The notes below the pieces were generated by a model. That model made no database searches, was not told where the DNA came from, and worked only from the letters and a program-made list of their open reading frames with translations. Position numbers and translations under genes: made by a program. DNA of 31,345 nucleotides from Patescibacteria group bacterium (GTDB lineage: Bacteria > Patescibacteriota > Microgenomatia > UBA10105 > UBA927): positions 13,170 through 44,514 of the forward strand of contig JBBTTP010000066.1 in NCBI GenBank assembly GCA_038064215.1, in the 5' to 3' direction. How positions within the stretch are numbered: position 1 is the first letter of the stretch; every line of letters starts with the position of its first letter. Below are positions 13,179 to 19,606 of this stretch, in pieces.

Positions 13179-13850
13179 TTATTTTTGTATAATACCCAAT
13201 CCGAATGTACCGGGAAATTCGATCATATTATATATCTTTTTCAACCGCAATTCCTGCCAGAATTGATGGATGCCATAATCGAGATCGTTCGTGTGTTTGG
13301 TATGAATATCGTGGAATGCCATAAATCCACCTTTTGTGAGTTTGGGCCAAAAAAAACGGAAATCTGATTCCACTCCCGCGTATGAGTGGTCGCCGTCAAC
13401 ATGGATATAGCTCCATGTATGGGAGGGGTACAGTTTTTTGAATTTTTGAGTCGTCATGATATGCATTGTAATATAATGCTCAAGGTTAAATTTTTCAAAT
13501 ATGTGCCCGCCTTCTTGTGTGTTCCAAAACCCTACGCCTCCCCAATGGCTTTTGTGTTTGGGATTGGCCTGATCATATCCGGCATCCACAAAGTCGACCA
13601 TTCCTTTTTGGTTATCGCGGCACGCAAGTGCGCAGATTGCCGGTATGTATCCATACCGGCTGCCGATGCATAATACCCGTTTGGGTTGAAGAACGCGAAT
13701 GAGCGCATAATGAATCCATCCATATCCCAGATTACCGGTTGTTTTATCCATTTCATGCCAGTTATCGCTACGAGCGTACAGATCAATAAATCGATTGATT
13801 GACGTGCGGTTGAATATATTGGTTGACTGAAATAGTCCTGTGTAATCCAT
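13179..13850 (-). CDS. Class I SAM-dependent methyltransferase (Methyltransf_24-like), paralogue 1
   Basis: VLCIGSRYG, IHVDGDHSY, GGFMAFHDI. Confidence 0.85.
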   Translation of the reverse strand: MDYTGLFQSTNIFNRTSINRFIDLYARSDNWHEMDKTTGNLGYGWIHYALIRVLQPKRVLCIGSRYGYIPAICALACRDNQKGMVDFVDAGYDQANPKHKSHWGGVGFWNTQEGGHIFEKFNLEHYITMHIMTTQKFKKLYPSHTWSYIHVDGDHSYAGVESDFRFFWPKLTKGGFMAFHDIHTKHTNDLDYGIHQFWQELRLKKIYNMIEFPGTFGLGIIQK

Positions 13851-13873: not shown

Positions 13874-15070
13874 ATGGGAGTTTTTGAAAAATTATTTAGG
13901 TACTTTCCGGATATTTTTTTCCACAAAAAGAAAATTCTTTCGATACTGCAAAAGACTGCCACTCCTGTTTTTTTAGCAGATAAGCGTATTTTGTTGGAGC
14001 GATATCAAAACCTGCAGTGGGCGCTTGAGAAATCGTGGAGCCGGTCACAGATAGCCTATTCGTTTAAAACAAATTACGATATCGCCCGGTCCCGTATATT
14101 TCAAACTCAAGGAGCTTGGGCAGAGGTGGTTTCCGGCAAAGAATACGCGTTGGCAAAAAAACTTGGCTATGCAGGCCATCAGATTATTTTCAACGGGCCT
14201 TACAAAACAAAGGACCAACTCGGTCAAGCGTTTAGAGATGATGCATTAGTTCATATAGATCATAAGGAAGAAATGGAAAGAGTTATTGCTTTAAGCAAAG
14301 TAATAAAGCATCGGATTCGTGTTGGTGTCCGTATCAGTATGCCCATTCCCCATATAGCACGAAGCAGATTCGGTTTTTTTGTTGAGACCGGAGAAGCGCT
14401 AGCGGCAATCCAAAAATTGAAAAAAACACAGGACGTCGACATCGAAAGTATCCATGCTCACATAGGTACAGACGTTGATACGTCACTCAGCTATGCTGCA
14501 GTAGTATCGGGTATGGCAGACGTTGCGGATTTTGCTCTGAAAGAAACGGGAAAACCGATTACTTTTTTGGATATCGGTGGCGGATTCCCTTCTCACGGTG
14601 AAAAACCTTTTAGCAGAATATCGTGGCATCCGAAAAGAATCGAAGATTACGTTCAGGGGATAGTGGGGGAACTGAAACACCATCTGGTTTTCAAGAATAT
14701 TCATCTTGTTGTTGAACCGGGAAGATACCTCGTCGATGATGGGATTATCTTTGCTTGTCGCGTGATTAGTGTTAGACGGGAACCTGGAAAGCAGATTGTA
14801 CTGACCGATGCTACACTTACGATGTTGCCGTTGAAATGGTACCGTCCGCAGATTATTCGTATTTATTCGCAGCAACTTGATGAAAAAAGCGGTCAAGAGG
14901 TAAAAACCGTTCTCTATGGCGCTTCCTGCCGTGAAGATGACATACTGTTTGAGGGGCAATTATCTTCTATTGTATCAGGAGATTATGTGATATTTTTTTG
15001 TGTCGGTGCTTACAATCAAAGTATGGCTTCGGATTTTATTTTTGAAAAACCTGCTGCTGTTTTTTTGTAA
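13874..15070 (+). CDS. Fold-type III PLP-dependent decarboxylase (LysA/ODC family), substrate unknown
   Basis: YSFKTN (PLP lysine), AEVVS, FNGPYK, HAHIGT, DIGGGFP, VEPGRYLV, GASC and GAYNQSM. Confidence 0.88.
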   Translation: MGVFEKLFRYFPDIFFHKKKILSILQKTATPVFLADKRILLERYQNLQWALEKSWSRSQIAYSFKTNYDIARSRIFQTQGAWAEVVSGKEYALAKKLGYAGHQIIFNGPYKTKDQLGQAFRDDALVHIDHKEEMERVIALSKVIKHRIRVGVRISMPIPHIARSRFGFFVETGEALAAIQKLKKTQDVDIESIHAHIGTDVDTSLSYAAVVSGMADVADFALKETGKPITFLDIGGGFPSHGEKPFSRISWHPKRIEDYVQGIVGELKHHLVFKNIHLVVEPGRYLVDDGIIFACRVISVRREPGKQIVLTDATLTMLPLKWYRPQIIRIYSQQLDEKSGQEVKTVLYGASCREDDILFEGQLSSIVSGDYVIFFCVGAYNQSMASDFIFEKPAAVFL

Positions 15071-15870
15071 TTGATATCTTCATCATCTATTTTTTGAATA
15101 AATCCCAGGCCGGAGTAATGGTTGGTGAGCTTGAATTTATACGGCAAAAACGAGAGATTTCTCCACATTTTTCCATGTTCAAAACGCATGCTTTCCGCAG
15201 TCCGGTCAAAATCTATGTCATGAAAGCAGATGAATCCTTCAGGGGTGAGGCGGGGCCAAAATAGCCGGAGATTGGTTATAGCACCCTGGTACGAGTGGTC
15301 GCCGTCCAGGTAGATATAGTCATAGTTCCAATTTTCTTTTTTGGCAAACTGTGCGCTGGTCATAATGTGCGTTGCTATATATTTGTTGACACCGAGGTAG
15401 CGAAAATGCTCGTCGGGTTTAACAGTTTTCCAGAATCCCTGGCCATAGTAATGTTTGCTGCTTCCCTTTTTCATGTCATACGATGCATCGACAAAATCTA
15501 CAAAACCTATTTGGTTTTCCATGCAGGCCTTGGCCATCATATACGGGATGAATCCGTACATGGAACCGATACAGAGTACCCGGTTGGGTTTCTGATTTCT
15601 GATGATTGCATAATGAATAAGCCCATATCCGAGATTCTGTGTAGATTTTTCCAGGTTTTGCGACCGCTGGTCGTTCCACCGGTAGTCCGCGCCGTAGTAA
15701 TAGACAATGCGGTCGTAAAAATAGCGTTCGAATGCGTGGTACATGGGGAAAAGGAATAAAGTGTCAAGCCAAAATGTTTTTCCCCATATTTTTTGTCGCA
15801 GTTTTTCCAGGGCGCGTTTGATGCCGAGGTTTAAATGAATAGAATGATAGATTTGTTCAATAAATTTCAT
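15016..15870 (-). CDS. Class I SAM-dependent methyltransferase (Methyltransf_24-like), paralogue 2
   Basis: VLCIGSMYG, IYLDGDHSY, EGFICFHDI. Shares NLGYGxIHYAxIR with 13179-13850. Start probably 15870. Confidence 0.82.
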   Translation of the reverse strand: MKFIEQIYHSIHLNLGIKRALEKLRQKIWGKTFWLDTLFLFPMYHAFERYFYDRIVYYYGADYRWNDQRSQNLEKSTQNLGYGLIHYAIIRNQKPNRVLCIGSMYGFIPYMMAKACMENQIGFVDFVDASYDMKKGSSKHYYGQGFWKTVKPDEHFRYLGVNKYIATHIMTSAQFAKKENWNYDYIYLDGDHSYQGAITNLRLFWPRLTPEGFICFHDIDFDRTAESMRFEHGKMWRNLSFLPYKFKLTNHYSGLGFIQKIDDEDINYKKTAAGFSKIKSEAIL

Positions 15871-15918
15871 TTTCGGTTGACGAGGCCTTCTTATTGTTGA
15901 TACACTAATGCAAATTAA

Positions 15919-16860
15919 ATGGTTAAACAAATTATTTTACCACAAATAACAGAAAAAGAGTTTTTCCGTCGATTAAGAGAAAGACCTTTCGAGGATATCG
16001 GAGCTATCCGTACCATCGAGTCATTTTTTAAAAAAAAGCGCGGTTATATCTTCAAAATGCCTAAGCCAGGGACGCCGGTTATTCTTTTGGTTTCCGGCGG
16101 CTTGGACTCAACCACCACTTGGGGGCTACTGCTTTTAAAATATAAATTAGTGGTCTACCCTCTTTTTATTTTCCGTGACAGTGTACGATCTAAAAAGGAA
16201 GAACATGCTGCCGATTATTTTTGGAACTATTTTTATAGAAAGTATCCCAACCAAGTCATGCCTTTAATGAAATTTCATACTATTCTTTCACCGCCGGAAA
16301 TAACCTTGAGTATGGAAAAAGAACATTATTATCATCCTAAACGGGTTTTAGACCTGATTGGCAACGAGATGATGCTTAAATATCCAAATTTTTATCCGCA
16401 ACGGGTCCTCCCTTATATTCACGTCTTTTATGCGCTGGTATACGCTCAATATCTTTATGAGCATGTAGATGTAAAGATACGGACGGTGTTTACCGCGGTT
16501 CTGGCCGGCGACGGATTAGTCGTACCCAGTCAGACACTTACTTCGCTTCGAACGGCTCTTCTTTCTGTTTGCCATACTACTGCTGATTATAGTTGGCAAT
16601 TTGCTTCTATCACTTTTGAAAAAGAATTGGGGCATTGGTTTTATAAAAAAGACGTGATTCTTTTGGGAAACAAGATGGGCCTACCGCTTGAAAAAACCTG
16701 GAGTTGTTACAGTGCGGGTTTGTTTCAGTGCGGCAACAGGTGTCAGACCTGCAAGAACAGAAGAGACGATTTTAGGGGCTCGGGACTCATTGACAAAACC
16801 GTTTATCTTGAGGATTTGACTTGGGTGAAATGGATGAGACATTTGGGGTTAATGAAGTGA
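15919..16860 (+). CDS. QueC-like (7-cyano-7-deazaguanine synthase family) PP-loop ATP pyrophosphatase, non-canonical
   Basis: SGGLDS PP-loop; C-terminal TWSCY...CGNRCQTCKNR zinc site; about 50-aa N-terminal extension; lacks the canonical VPxRN motif. Confidence 0.75.
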   Translation: MVKQIILPQITEKEFFRRLRERPFEDIGAIRTIESFFKKKRGYIFKMPKPGTPVILLVSGGLDSTTTWGLLLLKYKLVVYPLFIFRDSVRSKKEEHAADYFWNYFYRKYPNQVMPLMKFHTILSPPEITLSMEKEHYYHPKRVLDLIGNEMMLKYPNFYPQRVLPYIHVFYALVYAQYLYEHVDVKIRTVFTAVLAGDGLVVPSQTLTSLRTALLSVCHTTADYSWQFASITFEKELGHWFYKKDVILLGNKMGLPLEKTWSCYSAGLFQCGNRCQTCKNRRDDFRGSGLIDKTVYLEDLTWVKWMRHLGLMK

Positions 16861-16941: not shown

Positions 16942-17025
16942 ATGAAAGCGAAAAAAACGTACGCAAAACCAGGTGACAAGAAGGTAAAAATTCTCATGAA
17001 AGCACTTTTGGCCCTCAAGATGTAA
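16942..17025 (+). CDS. 27-aa peptide MKAKKTYAKPGDKKVKILMKALLALKM; putative RiPP precursor or leader-like peptide
   Basis: Not in the ORF track. Has its own promoter and RBS, a YxxP motif, and a TAA stop overlapping the PqqD ATG (TAATG). Confidence 0.6.
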   Translation: MKAKKTYAKPGDKKVKILMKALLALKM

Positions 17026-17291
17026 TGAAAAGGTTTAAAAGAGCTTCCTCTGTTCTTTCAAAGAAGATCCAAAATGGATGGGTTGTCCTCGAAAAAAATG
17101 CGAATTACTATCGTGAGTTAAATGATGTTGCAAGCATTTTGTGGTCCGTGTTGCAAACTCCCAGGTCACTTCAAGAACTCACTCAGACGGTAGTGAAGAC
17201 GTTTGATGTTGATACTGCAGCAGCAGAAAAAGATATATCCATTTTTATCAAAAAATACGTATGCAACGGATTTTTGGAAGAAGTTTCATAG
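17025..17291 (+). CDS. PqqD family protein / stand-alone RiPP recognition element
   Basis: 88 aa with the three-strand plus three-helix RRE pattern YYRELNDVASILWSVLQTPRSLQELTQTVVKTFDVD...AEKDISIFIKKY...GFLEE. Confidence 0.88.
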   Translation: MKRFKRASSVLSKKIQNGWVVLEKNANYYRELNDVASILWSVLQTPRSLQELTQTVVKTFDVDTAAAEKDISIFIKKYVCNGFLEEVS

Positions 17292-18308
17292 AGGTATGGC
17301 AGCGTTGTTTATTTTTGTCACCACTCCCATATAATTTTTTTCTGTTATTTCCCACGCATCAAAGCCAAAAGCATTGTCCCCCTTGGTTAAGCAAGCAAGT
17401 TTTTCATCTTTGATTGTGATTTCTGCCACGCGGTGAATAATAAGCTCCGGAAAATTGTGAAATGTAAAGGCAATAATATACCCCGATTTGACTTTACGAA
17501 AGGGTATTTTTTGAATGGCGAGGAGATTGCCTTTCCGGATAACCGGATACATACTGTTTGATGAGGCTTTGACGATGACAGAGCGGTGTTCCAGTGTTTT
17601 TTGAGTTGCCCAAATCATGGTTTCTTGTGTTTGATTCTGAAGTACTCCTTGATCAATAATGAGTACTCTATCGCAAAATTGTTGGAGTACTCCTATATCC
17701 TGCCAAGTAAATAAAATTGTTTTTGTACGCGGCAATGTCCTAAATACCGCAAGTCCTTTTTGCCGAAAATCCATATCCCCGACGCTGAGTCCTTCATCAA
17801 CAATAAGAATGTCCGGATCAGAGTGGGTAGCTATGGAAAAGCCAAGACGTAGTTTCATGCCTGCCGAATACGTAAAGAGCGGTGCGTCGATAAACCGGCC
17901 GATGGCAGCAAACGCGATAATACTTTTGAGTTTTTGGCTGATTTTATTTTTATTTACGCCCAGAAGCATAGCGTTGAGGTATATGTTCTGAATTCCGGTT
18001 AGTTCCGGATGGAATCCGGCTTCGAGATCTATCAAAGATACAATTCTGCCGTTAGTCTGGACCGTGCCGCTTGTGGGCGTCGTAATGCCGGCGATGATTT
18101 TGAGGAGGGTCGTCTTTCCCGACCCATTCGGGCCGATGATGCCGACCCGCTCCCCTTTCTTGATCGTGAGGTTCACGTCCTTCAGCGCCCAGAACTCCTC
18201 ATCTTTGCCCTTCGCTAGCCGCTCGACGAGCGTGGGCTTCTCGTGGTGGATGGTATATCTCTTTGAAACACCGGTGAGTTTTATGGCGATGTGTGTGTTT
18301 TGTCTCAT
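17286..18308 (-). CDS. wzt: Wzt-type polysaccharide ABC transporter ATPase fused to a C-terminal S24/S26-family peptidase domain
   Basis: Walker A GPNGSGKT, GFHPELTG, YSAGM and Walker B ILIVDE. The C-terminal ~105 aa carry SNSMYP...IIHRV...TKGDN. True start is 18308; the ORF-track extension is shadow of wzm. Confidence 0.85.
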   Translation of the reverse strand: MRQNTHIAIKLTGVSKRYTIHHEKPTLVERLAKGKDEEFWALKDVNLTIKKGERVGIIGPNGSGKTTLLKIIAGITTPTSGTVQTNGRIVSLIDLEAGFHPELTGIQNIYLNAMLLGVNKNKISQKLKSIIAFAAIGRFIDAPLFTYSAGMKLRLGFSIATHSDPDILIVDEGLSVGDMDFRQKGLAVFRTLPRTKTILFTWQDIGVLQQFCDRVLIIDQGVLQNQTQETMIWATQKTLEHRSVIVKASSNSMYPVIRKGNLLAIQKIPFRKVKSGYIIAFTFHNFPELIIHRVAEITIKDEKLACLTKGDNAFGFDAWEITEKNYMGVVTKINNAAIPL

Positions 18309-19072
18309 AGCCAGTCGTCGAAATTTTTGCTTTCCCGTTGAAATACTGTTATCCCCAGGATGGTGATGAGGACAATGACGCCGATATTGGATAGGAGCAT
18401 CCCCGGCCCCGGGCCGGGTAAACCCAGAAGTGCTTGTTGTAGCAGTTGGAGCATTGATGTTAACGGATTGAACCGCCAGAGCCAGAGGAGATGACGCGGG
18501 ATCATGGTAAGGGCGTACATGATGGGTGTGGCGTAAAACCAGATAATGAGGAGGGCGGAGACGAAGAAGCTGACGTCGCGGAATCGGACGTTGAGACTGG
18601 TGGTTAAAAGACTTAGCCCAACGGTAAACGTGAGCAATAAGATAAAACTCGCAAGAACAAGGGGAATGGATATCCATGAGATTGTCCCCAAAAAAAGCAC
18701 CGGGATGAGATACAAAAGAAATGCAAGAAAAAAATGGATGAAGTTGGACAGAATGATGGAGATCGGGATGACGGCATGAGGAAATCGTGCTTTCTTAATG
18801 AGGCTTCGCTCGTAGACGATAGACGGTGTTGCTTTAGAAAGCGAGAGCGAGAAAAAATTCCAGACCAGAAGTCCAATGAAAAGAAAGAAATAATAATTTT
18901 TGACCGGTTGCGCCAGAAGGAAGGTAAAGACAAATCCAATGACGAGCATTTGCAAAAGCGGATTGGCGACTAGCCAGAAAAATCCGAACACGGTGTGTTT
19001 GTACCGCGCCCGGAGTTCTTTTTCCGTCATGCCCCACAAGAGTTCCAAAAAGTGTTGCACTTGCCTGTTCAT
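18305..19072 (-). CDS. wzm: Wzm-type ABC-2 permease
   Basis: ELRARYKHTVFGFFWLVANPLLQM, LNVRFRDV, WFYATPIMY, NPLT. 4-bp overlap with wzt; start 19072. Confidence 0.92.
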   Translation of the reverse strand: MNRQVQHFLELLWGMTEKELRARYKHTVFGFFWLVANPLLQMLVIGFVFTFLLAQPVKNYYFFLFIGLLVWNFFSLSLSKATPSIVYERSLIKKARFPHAVIPISIILSNFIHFFLAFLLYLIPVLFLGTISWISIPLVLASFILLLTFTVGLSLLTTSLNVRFRDVSFFVSALLIIWFYATPIMYALTMIPRHLLWLWRFNPLTSMLQLLQQALLGLPGPGPGMLLSNIGVIVLITILGITVFQRESKNFDDWL

Positions 19073-19090
19073 GCGTCTATTATATGCTAA
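19073..19090. promoter_or_regulatory. Overlapping divergent -10 boxes: TATAAT (minus, 19079-19084) and TATTAT (plus, 19078-19083)
   Basis: 18-bp gap; boxes lie 6 and 7 nt from the ATGs at 19072 and 19091. Confidence 0.55.
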
Positions 19091-19606
19091 ATGTTTTCCC
19101 TTCTCTACCAACAGCGAAGAATAGGTAAGGGCGGTATGCCGTTTGCTCTGTATAAATTCCGCACGATGATCGCGGGGGCTGATGCCATGCAGAAAAAATT
19201 GCTTCCCCGCAATGAAGCAGATGGTCCGGTGTTTAAAATCCGCGATGATCCCCGCTTTACCCGTATAGGCAGATTTTTAAGCCACACGGGGCTTGACGAG
19301 TTGCCGCAGATTATCAATGTGATACGCGGTGAGATGGCGATCATCGGCCCGCGTCCGCTGCCTGCGGCAGAAGCTGCTAAACTCAAATCCTGGCAGAAGA
19401 AGCGCCACAGCGTGAAGCCCGGTATTATTTCTCCGTGGATCTTGGAGGGATATCATGCAAAGTCATTCAATGAATGGATGAAAAGCGACATTGCGTACGT
19501 CAAAACCAAGAGTATGTTGGGTGATGTGCGGTTGGGGTTCCGGGCGTGTCTGTTTATGGTCAGGCTTTTTGGGAAAGAATTAGAAGCCATATTGTCAAAC
19601 CGATAG
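19091..19606 (+). CDS. Bacterial sugar transferase (phosphoglycosyl transferase catalytic domain) lacking the N-terminal membrane helix
   Basis: QRRIGKGG..F.LYKFRTM, DDPRFT, GLDELPQ, IIGPRP, VKPGI. An in-frame TAA lies immediately upstream of the ATG. Confidence 0.85.
   Translation: MFSLLYQQRRIGKGGMPFALYKFRTMIAGADAMQKKLLPRNEADGPVFKIRDDPRFTRIGRFLSHTGLDELPQIINVIRGEMAIIGPRPLPAAEAAKLKSWQKKRHSVKPGIISPWILEGYHAKSFNEWMKSDIAYVKTKSMLGDVRLGFRACLFMVRLFGKELEAILSNR

Follow-up and report, generated by a model that had tools for sequence, protein, structure and literature searches.

To our knowledge, the only textbook case so far of a leader peptidase wired to an ATP-binding cassette (ABC) exporter is the C39 domain of the peptidase-containing ABC transporters (PCATs). 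In PCATs, a papain-like C39 cysteine peptidase forms the N-terminus of a type IV exporter whose membrane and ATPase domains are fused; this peptidase cleaves behind Gly-Gly and does not require a recognition element for peptides that are made on the ribosome and modified after translation (RiPP recognition element, RRE) (PMC10885120). In the same review, published in 2023 and devoted to the leader proteases of RiPPs, no enzyme of the signal-peptidase type is named, and the C39 domain of PCATs is the only transporter-fused peptidase (PMC10885120). LppS, a SipW homologue in Bacillota, was described as the leader peptidase of linear polyphosphorylated peptides (LPPs) (Popov et al., Nat Commun 2026, PMC13381572). 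For cleavage, LppS needs the leader to be presented by the discrete RRE LppB, its mutants S29A, H68A and D93A are inactive, and its N-terminal alpha1 helix contacts the RRE-leader sheet (PMC13381572). The LPP leader carries a YxxP motif and is cut 16 residues past the Tyr; LPP clusters sit in capsule loci and LPPs were called Bacillota-restricted, and the main text of that paper mentions neither ABC transporters nor Patescibacteria (PMC13381572). Here we describe a gene that joins an LppS-like peptidase domain to the ATPase of a Wzt-type exporter, found in a 31,345-nt stretch of Patescibacteria contig JBBTTP010000066.1 (positions 13,170 to 44,514; hereafter the window).

The wzt-S26 fusion gene is located at 17286–18308 on the minus strand (start ATG 18308–18306, stop 17288–17286) and encodes, in a single frame, protein P0001 of 340 aa plus stop. 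Residues 1–224 (17637–18308, minus strand) form a Wzt/TagH-type nucleotide-binding domain. ABC_tran (Pfam PF00005) spans residues 42–173 (E 7.6e-23), and the NCBIfam TagH/Wzt models cover residues 7–229 with E-values of 1e-47 to 4e-53 and scores under the equivalog cut-offs. Alignment showed that the Walker A motif GPNGSGKT, the YSAGM signature and Walker B with the catalytic Glu172 are all intact, and that the domain is 62–66% identical to unfused Wzt proteins of the candidate phyla radiation (CPR), with best local matches of 71%. The ATPase domain is followed by a predicted alpha-helix (residues 225–236; 17601–17636, minus strand; DSSP on both models) and then by a beta-barrel (17289–17600, minus strand) of the S26B type (Sec11/SipW/LppS-like). 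The AlphaFold2 models give this same order, with a mean predicted local distance difference test (pLDDT) score of 85.9 and a predicted template modelling score of 0.80 for the whole protein, and a pLDDT of 90.5 for the S26 domain alone. A first-pass annotation of the window had read a complete Wzt ATPase domain and an anchor-less Ser/His S26-type domain in one frame, at the position where Wzt often carries a carbohydrate-binding domain. The Pfam, NCBIfam and TIGR02228 matches agree with this, the position is as described, and the motifs it quoted are all present, namely SNSM (Ser252), HR (His292) and KGDN (Asp311).

The C-terminal region matched S24/S26 profiles, as that annotation had expected. 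Pfam Peptidase_S24 scored 28.6 bits at residues 225–296 (cut-off 23.3), and the C-terminal 128 residues scored 68.2 bits against TIGR02228, the archaeal-type signal peptidase I (cut-off 51.85). The TIGR02228 match covers profile positions 32–121 of 158 and leaves positions 1–31 unmatched; because it begins at position 32, the membrane anchor is missing. The N-terminal membrane anchor, a classical S26B trait, is thus absent, and helix 225–236 runs straight into the barrel. A profile of 12 such S26 domains searched against the PDB matched human SEC11C (7p2q) and SEC11A with E-values of 1.8e-14 and 1.7e-13, respectively, and the Ser, His, GDN and second Asp of the domain align with those of SEC11C and SEC11A. 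Foldseek with the S26 domain model placed 7p2q and 7p2p on top (TM 0.68), and VIA-align gave Z-scores of 10–11 to SipA, E. coli SPase I and SEC11C, with LexA-type domains ranking next. A self-cleaving domain of the LexA/UmuD type (S24) was ruled out, as the general base is His and not Lys and SEC11 gives the closest matches in both sequence and fold. The S26 domain must be cytoplasmic, since it is fused behind a cytoplasmic ATPase domain and is anchor-less. A separate LepB-type housekeeping signal peptidase gene was found on contig C41 (109.8 bits).

The putative catalytic residues are Ser252 (17553–17555), His292 (17433–17435), Asp311 (17376–17378) and Asp317 (17358–17360), all on the minus strand. 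These four residues were invariant in 11 fused proteins of 41–56% identity, and also in 12 fused, split, stand-alone or otherwise fused S26 domains of 19–40% identity. Their invariance across fused, split and free forms argues for a working peptidase. The spacing is Ser-40-His-25-Asp, which, numbered from residue 226, gives S27, H67 and D92, near-identical to S29, H68 and D93 of LppS.

The fusion is real and recurrent. Identical P0001 was found on 8 contigs (NCBI, Logan, ENA), and both the fusion and the WQD H-loop were retained in strain variants P0122 and P0123. A third variant, P0121 (320 aa), is frameshifted just after the KG of KGDN and has lost both conserved Asp residues; this reflects either an error in sequencing or a strain whose peptidase is disabled. 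A homologue search returned nine further proteins of 336–351 aa with the whole architecture and 43–56% identity. The fused gene was present in four other species-level genomes of the same class (G036, G273, G217 and G352) and in three metagenome loci (L103, L104 and L110). In an exhaustive S26-profile search of 1.84 billion representatives of clusters at 50% identity, 16 ATPase-S26 fusions were among the best 150 matches; the other matches in this set included 97 proteins of up to 200 aa, nearly all free domains, and 23 with the S26 domain N-terminal in a longer protein. Word-based searches returned very little, identity being low: residues 226–340 retrieved the query only, and the S26-domain alignment retrieved 9 matches. 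Domains encoded always separately in relatives, named in advance as the refuting case, is not what the other genomes, the metagenomes and the 16 clusters contain. Among the free S26 domains within the best 150 representatives, crude hydropathy indicated an N-terminal membrane-like segment in 14 of 100 and a C-terminal one in 15 of 100, and neither in the remainder.

One member of the fused family is already present in published data. Supplementary Data 1 of PMC13381572 contains OGV92686.1, a 343-aa Microgenomates "signal peptidase I" with a Wzt-type ATPase N-terminus and an adjacent RRE; it comes from the LppS-seeded BLASTP set (E <= 0.001), which indirectly links the fused family to LppS by sequence, and was left uncommented by the authors. 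The database names "signal peptidase I" and "ABC transporter ATP-binding protein" are both misleading for the fused family, a variant of the LppS-type leader peptidase that is real, recurs and has not yet been discussed.

Among the loci with a PqqD gene, the peptidase is fused to Wzt in eight, split in two and a free gene in about ten. In the split form (L076 and L112), a separate open reading frame (ORF) stands straight after the Wzt ATPase gene, with stop and start overlapping. The free peptidase gene mostly converges on PqqD. Genome G002 was rejected as a further split form, its stop-containing full-length profile match being an ordinary Wzt followed by a family 1 glycosyltransferase (GT1). 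A quick tree of the ATPase domain intermixed fused and unfused proteins, and its well-supported branches force at least 3 changes. This suggests repeated fusion or fission of neighbouring genes, although a quick tree only does not settle the number of independent fusions. The earlier idea of a recent fusion by stop loss therefore holds in part: the identities of 41–56% and the wide distribution of the fusion speak against a recent event and mark it as old and widespread, and the adjacent pairs in L076 and L112 show that fusion or fission of neighbours does occur. Similarly, M231 (17616–17618), within helix 225–236 and once proposed as the start of a former peptidase gene, lines up with where the stand-alone gene of L076 begins and is not conserved in the other fused members.

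The fusion gene is part of a conserved cassette. The gene of a PqqD-family RRE (88 aa; 17025–17291, plus strand; PF05402, E 1.2e-10) converges on it, the 3' ends overlapping by 6 nt. The best NCBIfam matches of the PqqD protein are lasso-type PqqD chaperones, under the cut-offs. Its start overlaps the stop of a putative precursor-peptide gene of 27 codons (16942–17025, plus strand) with a YxxP leader motif and a Shine-Dalgarno-like run upstream. The signature enzyme of the cassette is a QueC-like PP-loop ATPase (313 aa; 15919–16860, plus strand; PF06508, E 5.1e-12), which reaches only 30 bits against TIGR00364 (cut-off 150). In G036, G273, G217, G352 and the metagenome loci, wzm, the QueC-like gene, the PqqD gene and a mini-ORF invariably adjoin the fused gene. 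The QueC-like protein searched alone against the genome contigs found only three distant Cloacimonadota QueC loci, and no PqqD plus QueC combination was found in the literature searched. The unpublished genome G108, on which none of the conclusions is based, yielded just one weak and partial QueC-like match.

The exporter partner is wzm, a gene for an ABC-2 type permease (18305–19111, minus strand; PF01061 ABC2_membrane, E 5.4e-16), adjacent as is usual for Wzt/TagH-type ATPases. Its stop TGA (18307–18305) shares an ATGA overlap with the start of the fusion gene. The permease scored under the cut-off of the NCBIfam Wzm/RfbD model, and the true start of wzm may be an ATG 39 nt inside the listed ORF. 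The mechanical list also has an ORF of 463 aa, which merely prolongs the fusion frame upstream into wzm and was rejected as the gene.

Homologues of the 27-codon gene were found at the equivalent place in 19 loci besides the window, giving 22 mini-ORFs in 20 loci (for example L010:6148-6216:-, L076:1661-1738:+, L078:9055-9132:+ and L104:6060-6122:+); none was found in loci without PqqD. They are 20–28 codons long, with one exception of 47 codons, and share a plan of a basic N-terminus, Tyr-x-x-Pro, two basic residues and an alternating hydrophobic stretch. No Gly-Gly site is present in them. In L102, the interval between the QueC-like and PqqD genes holds three tandem mini-genes of 24, 24 and 25 codons (L102:950-1177). 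The exception is the precursor of G273 (L044:10586-10729, minus strand), which has 47 aa and a Cys-rich tail and shares its cluster with a radical SAM/SPASM gene (L044:4671-5744, plus strand); this variant may be a thioether-type version of the cassette.

The components of the cassette were also found fused to one another in several ways. QueC-like enzymes are fused to PqqD (L094:8059-9255 and L121:1454-2719), and S26 domains are fused to a QueC-like enzyme (P0167), to a PF14907 nucleotidyltransferase (L079, L090, P0177 and P0193), to a radical SAM enzyme (P0140) and to a spermine-synthase-like methyltransferase (P0188). These varied fusions place the peptidase, the RRE, the QueC-like enzyme and the exporter in one pathway. 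The overlap of the 3' end of the S26-bearing gene with that of a converging gene recurs, at 6–33 nt (window:17286-17291, L044:9330-9340, L076:2015-2047 and L078:9443-9463); the converging partner is PqqD, but the QueC-like gene in L044. At L087:2823-5876, and in the same layout in L114, Wzm/Wzt is replaced beside the QueC-like, PqqD and S26 genes by a protein of 1017 aa whose N-terminal domain is a class I methyltransferase and whose C-terminal domain is an ABC ATPase.

Compared with LppS, the domain is likewise a small anchor-less S26B peptidase with a short helix before the barrel; helix 225–236 would correspond to alpha1 of LppS. Both have a discrete PqqD-type RRE next door and a YxxP precursor, and both kinds of cluster lie within surface-polysaccharide loci. 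However, LppS is a free protein, whereas the domain here is the C-terminus of a Wzt ATPase. The LPP enzymes also differ: scans of the window cassette showed no HprK-like kinase, NTP transferase or MsbA-like pump, and in their stead it has a QueC-like ATPase, a decarboxylase, Methyltransf_24 enzymes and Wzm/Wzt. PF14907 fusions occur in the sister loci L079 and L090. LPP precursors have 35–200 aa, in contrast to 20–28 aa here, and the hosts are Bacillota there and Patescibacteria here.

[quoted passage not shown] Unlike in PCATs, the peptidase is a serine enzyme of the S26B type placed C-terminally, the ATPase that carries it is a subunit separate from the permease in an ABC-2 (type V) exporter, and the locus includes an RRE. 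The Pfam scan of P0001 gave no C39 match. The fusion is not a member of the PCAT family, because there is no homology; it is analogous and built from different parts.

In Wzt of E. coli O8/O9a and of Aquifex aeolicus, the appended domain is a carbohydrate-binding sandwich. P0001 resembles these proteins and TagH in its ATPase family, its Wzm partner and the C-terminal position of the add-on, but the added domain has a peptidase fold and the H-loop His is replaced by Gln. It shares the fold, motifs and catalytic residues of Sec11, SipW and archaeal signal peptidase I (MEROPS S26B); the classical members have an N-terminal membrane-helix anchor, act on the outer membrane face and cut Sec substrates, whereas this domain is anchor-less and cytoplasmic. 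Lasso peptide machinery consists of precursor A, the PqqD RRE B1, the cysteine peptidase B2, the Asn-synthetase-like cyclase C and the ABC exporter D. The overall logic is alike, with an RRE and YxxP leader type, a PP-loop ATPase, a leader peptidase and an ABC exporter, but the peptidase is S26B and not transglutaminase-like, the PP-loop enzyme is QueC-like and not AsnB-like, and a lasso fold would need longer peptides. A lasso product was ruled out: counted from the Tyr, the peptides run for only 17–22 residues, and they have no conserved acidic residue to close a ring.

The altered H-loop reported in the first-pass annotation was found as described: W202-Q203-D204 (17697–17705, minus strand), read from the sequence and the homologue alignment, replaces the usual Ser-His-Asp. 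The switch histidine typical of Wzt/TagH ATPases is thus Gln203. Among the 120 closest homologues, this column holds His in 112, Gln in 7 and Pro in 1. Gln occurs in about 6% of close Wzt relatives, fused or not, five of the seven Gln-bearing proteins being unfused, and G340 has it too in its split ATPase domain. His is retained by most fused proteins (8 of the 10 in the homologue search and 15 of the 16 fused cluster representatives, the sixteenth having Gln). In nucleotide-binding domain 2 of ABCC1, Gln or Asn at the H-loop of the consensus site left transport wild-type-like (reviewed in PMC7756269). Because Gln occurs in unfused relatives, His in most fused ones, ABCC1 offers a precedent and the other motifs are intact, Gln203 is probably a natural variant unrelated to the fusion and tolerated by the ATPase. 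The suggestion that the change impairs ATP hydrolysis or goes with the fusion is not borne out.

We consider it rather probable that the S26B domain is a cytoplasmic leader peptidase of the LppS kind, whose cleavage is tethered to a Wzm/Wzt-type ABC-2 exporter. What we observe at these loci is how the domains are arranged and folded, that the catalytic residues do not vary, that the cassette is conserved and that the fusion recurs; RRE-dependent leader cleavage by this type of peptidase is taken from the literature and would apply here by analogy. For the peptide chemistry, the cleavage site and a mechanical coupling of cleavage to export, we infer the following course. The PqqD protein would bind the 27-residue product of 16942–17025 through its YxxP motif, and the QueC-like PP-loop ATPase would tailor the peptide, likely by adenylation of a carboxylate and formation of an amide with an amine from the pyridoxal phosphate (PLP)-dependent decarboxylase; the methyltransferases may add further changes. 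The RRE-leader complex would then dock on helix 225–236 of the fusion protein, and Ser252 and His292, with Asp317 and possibly Asp311, would cut the peptide, about 16 residues past the Tyr if the LPP leader spacing holds. The short C-terminal product would pass to the Wzm channel and be exported at the cost of ATP. The synteny with PqqD and the YxxP mini-gene, the invariant residues and the recurrent fusion all support the earlier proposal that proteolysis is functionally coupled to export, here within a peptide pathway and its exporter.

A three-chain prediction of PqqD, peptide and S26 domain reached an ipSAE of 0.34, against 0.00 for the best of three controls; the runs shared at least 90% of contacts, with a partner pLDDT of at least 82. 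In the calibration, 58 of 80 solved complexes attained the mark, as did 2 of 110 mismatched pairs; at an ipSAE of 0.60 or less, only 7 of the 80 solved complexes did so, together with both passing mismatches. The model weakly suggests that the S26 domain could dock on PqqD with its peptide. Genomes G273, G352 and G340 have a second, conventional Wzt besides the peptidase-fused or peptidase-paired one, and for this reason the transporter can be dedicated to the cassette.

Several points weigh against a tethered leader peptidase, the weakness of the complex model among them. With a free peptidase gene in about ten loci, tethering is dispensable. The fused Wzt is the only Wzt found in the window genome (93% complete), and it may therefore export the glycan of the surrounding island too, or instead; moreover, its ATPase domain is 62–71% identical to ordinary unfused CPR Wzt of glycan loci. 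The QueC-like gene, the methyltransferase and Wzm/Wzt occur together without PqqD, peptide or S26 in L081, L084, L086, L088, L089 and L095, and because these genes travel without the peptide parts, part of the cassette may serve glycan decoration. Finally, if the 16-residue Tyr ruler applies, only 1–6 residues would remain of the short precursors, an unusual "core"; or the cleavage site lies elsewhere.

Some of these points would also fit domains that are co-localised and uncoupled. Here the S26 domain would be an RRE-dependent peptidase for the mini-peptide and Wzm/Wzt the exporter of the island glycan, the fusion securing no more than co-expression, stoichiometry or membrane proximity, and the peptide would leave otherwise or stay inside. 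The kinship to glycan-type Wzt, the single Wzt of the window genome and the commoner free-standing peptidase genes agree with such an arrangement, as do the family 2 glycosyltransferase (GT2), Wzy_C and Bac_transf genes in the window and the quick tree, whose intermixing and forced changes suggest easy fusion and fission of neighbours. Nevertheless, we hold it to be unlikely, if still a serious contender: the exporter is the recurrent fusion partner in at least 16 clusters, the split peptidase genes of L076 and L112 follow the ATPase gene directly with overlapping stop and start, three genomes have a conventional Wzt to spare, and the peptide cassette of L087 and L114 uses a different ABC protein. 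A further alternative, which we judge improbable, has the peptide joined to the exported glycan or its lipid carrier through the QueC-like ligase, which would link a carboxylate of the peptide or of a sugar to an amine as an amide, with S26 recognising and trimming this peptide "cap" and thereby licensing export. It would account for S26 at the position of the Wzt carbohydrate-binding domain, for the glycan island around this cassette, LPP clusters being placed likewise by Popov et al. (PMC13381572), and for QueC-like enzyme, decarboxylase and methyltransferase genes accompanying Wzm/Wzt without a peptide. This alternative is inference only, no glycan-peptide linkage enzyme was identified, and the L010 cassette is flanked by Fic and RidA genes and not by glycan genes.

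Inactive signal-peptidase homologues exist, such as S. pyogenes SipA, the top VIA-align match, and the S26 domain might by that precedent be a non-catalytic pseudo-peptidase that binds cargo. We give this very little weight, as the four catalytic residues are invariant in fused, split and free forms down to 19% identity. Least credible of all is an assembly artefact, a pseudogene or a very recent, functionless loss of a stop codon; the frameshifted tail of P0121, with both Asp residues lost, would fit it, but the identical frame stands on 8 contigs from three sources and the fusion is kept at 41–56% identity in many lineages.

The remaining genes of the cassette in the window are a Methyltransf_24 methyltransferase (15016–15930, minus strand; PF13578, E 2.6e-12), which recurs in most related loci, a PLP-dependent decarboxylase of the ornithine/diaminopimelate/arginine type (13874–15070, plus strand; PF02784 and PF00278) and a second Methyltransf_24 methyltransferase (13179–13850, minus strand; PF13578, E 1.4e-14) with an ortholog in the equivalent position of L044. 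The PF02784-type decarboxylase is found in the window (13874-15070) and in G273 (L044:6426-7580). In genomes G036 and G352 it is swapped for a group II decarboxylase, PF00282 (L010:9012-10325 and L078:5882-7129), a non-orthologous replacement between unrelated families. G340 has a spermine-synthase-like gene (L076:13-690) instead of a decarboxylase. As unrelated decarboxylases or a spermine-synthase-like gene fill the same slot, the conserved function seems to be the making of an amine. Beyond wzm, a Bac_transf phosphoglycosyl transferase gene (window:19091-19606, plus strand) encodes only 171 aa, and the profile is matched from position 35 of 179 onwards; judged from this, the protein seems to lack its N-terminal membrane-associated part. 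The gene start at 19091 overlaps the listed start of the divergent wzm.

In its widest form, the cassette could represent a new class of ribosomal-peptide pathway in Patescibacteria, an idea we put forward only tentatively. The YxxP peptide of 20–28 residues would be mainly a handle, the QueC-like enzyme would be guided by the RRE to alter the C-terminal end, likely as an amide with a decarboxylase-derived amine, and Wzt-S26 would be the first ABC-2-based "PCAT", cutting off and exporting a product of just 1–6 residues. In a bolder form still, the peptide would cap a glycan and S26 would read the cap in place of the carbohydrate-binding domain.

CPR bacteria are regarded as having almost no secondary metabolism. 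If the tethered leader peptidase is correct, these loci would offer a compact, expressible cassette of peptide, RRE, QueC-like enzyme and peptidase-exporter, and the LppS-type leader peptidase, which was described only in 2026 and said to be confined to Bacillota, would extend to ultra-small CPR bacteria with a different enzyme set. It would also be a second, independently evolved wiring of a leader peptidase to an ABC exporter, with an RRE-guided S26B peptidase on the ATPase subunit of an ABC-2 transporter.

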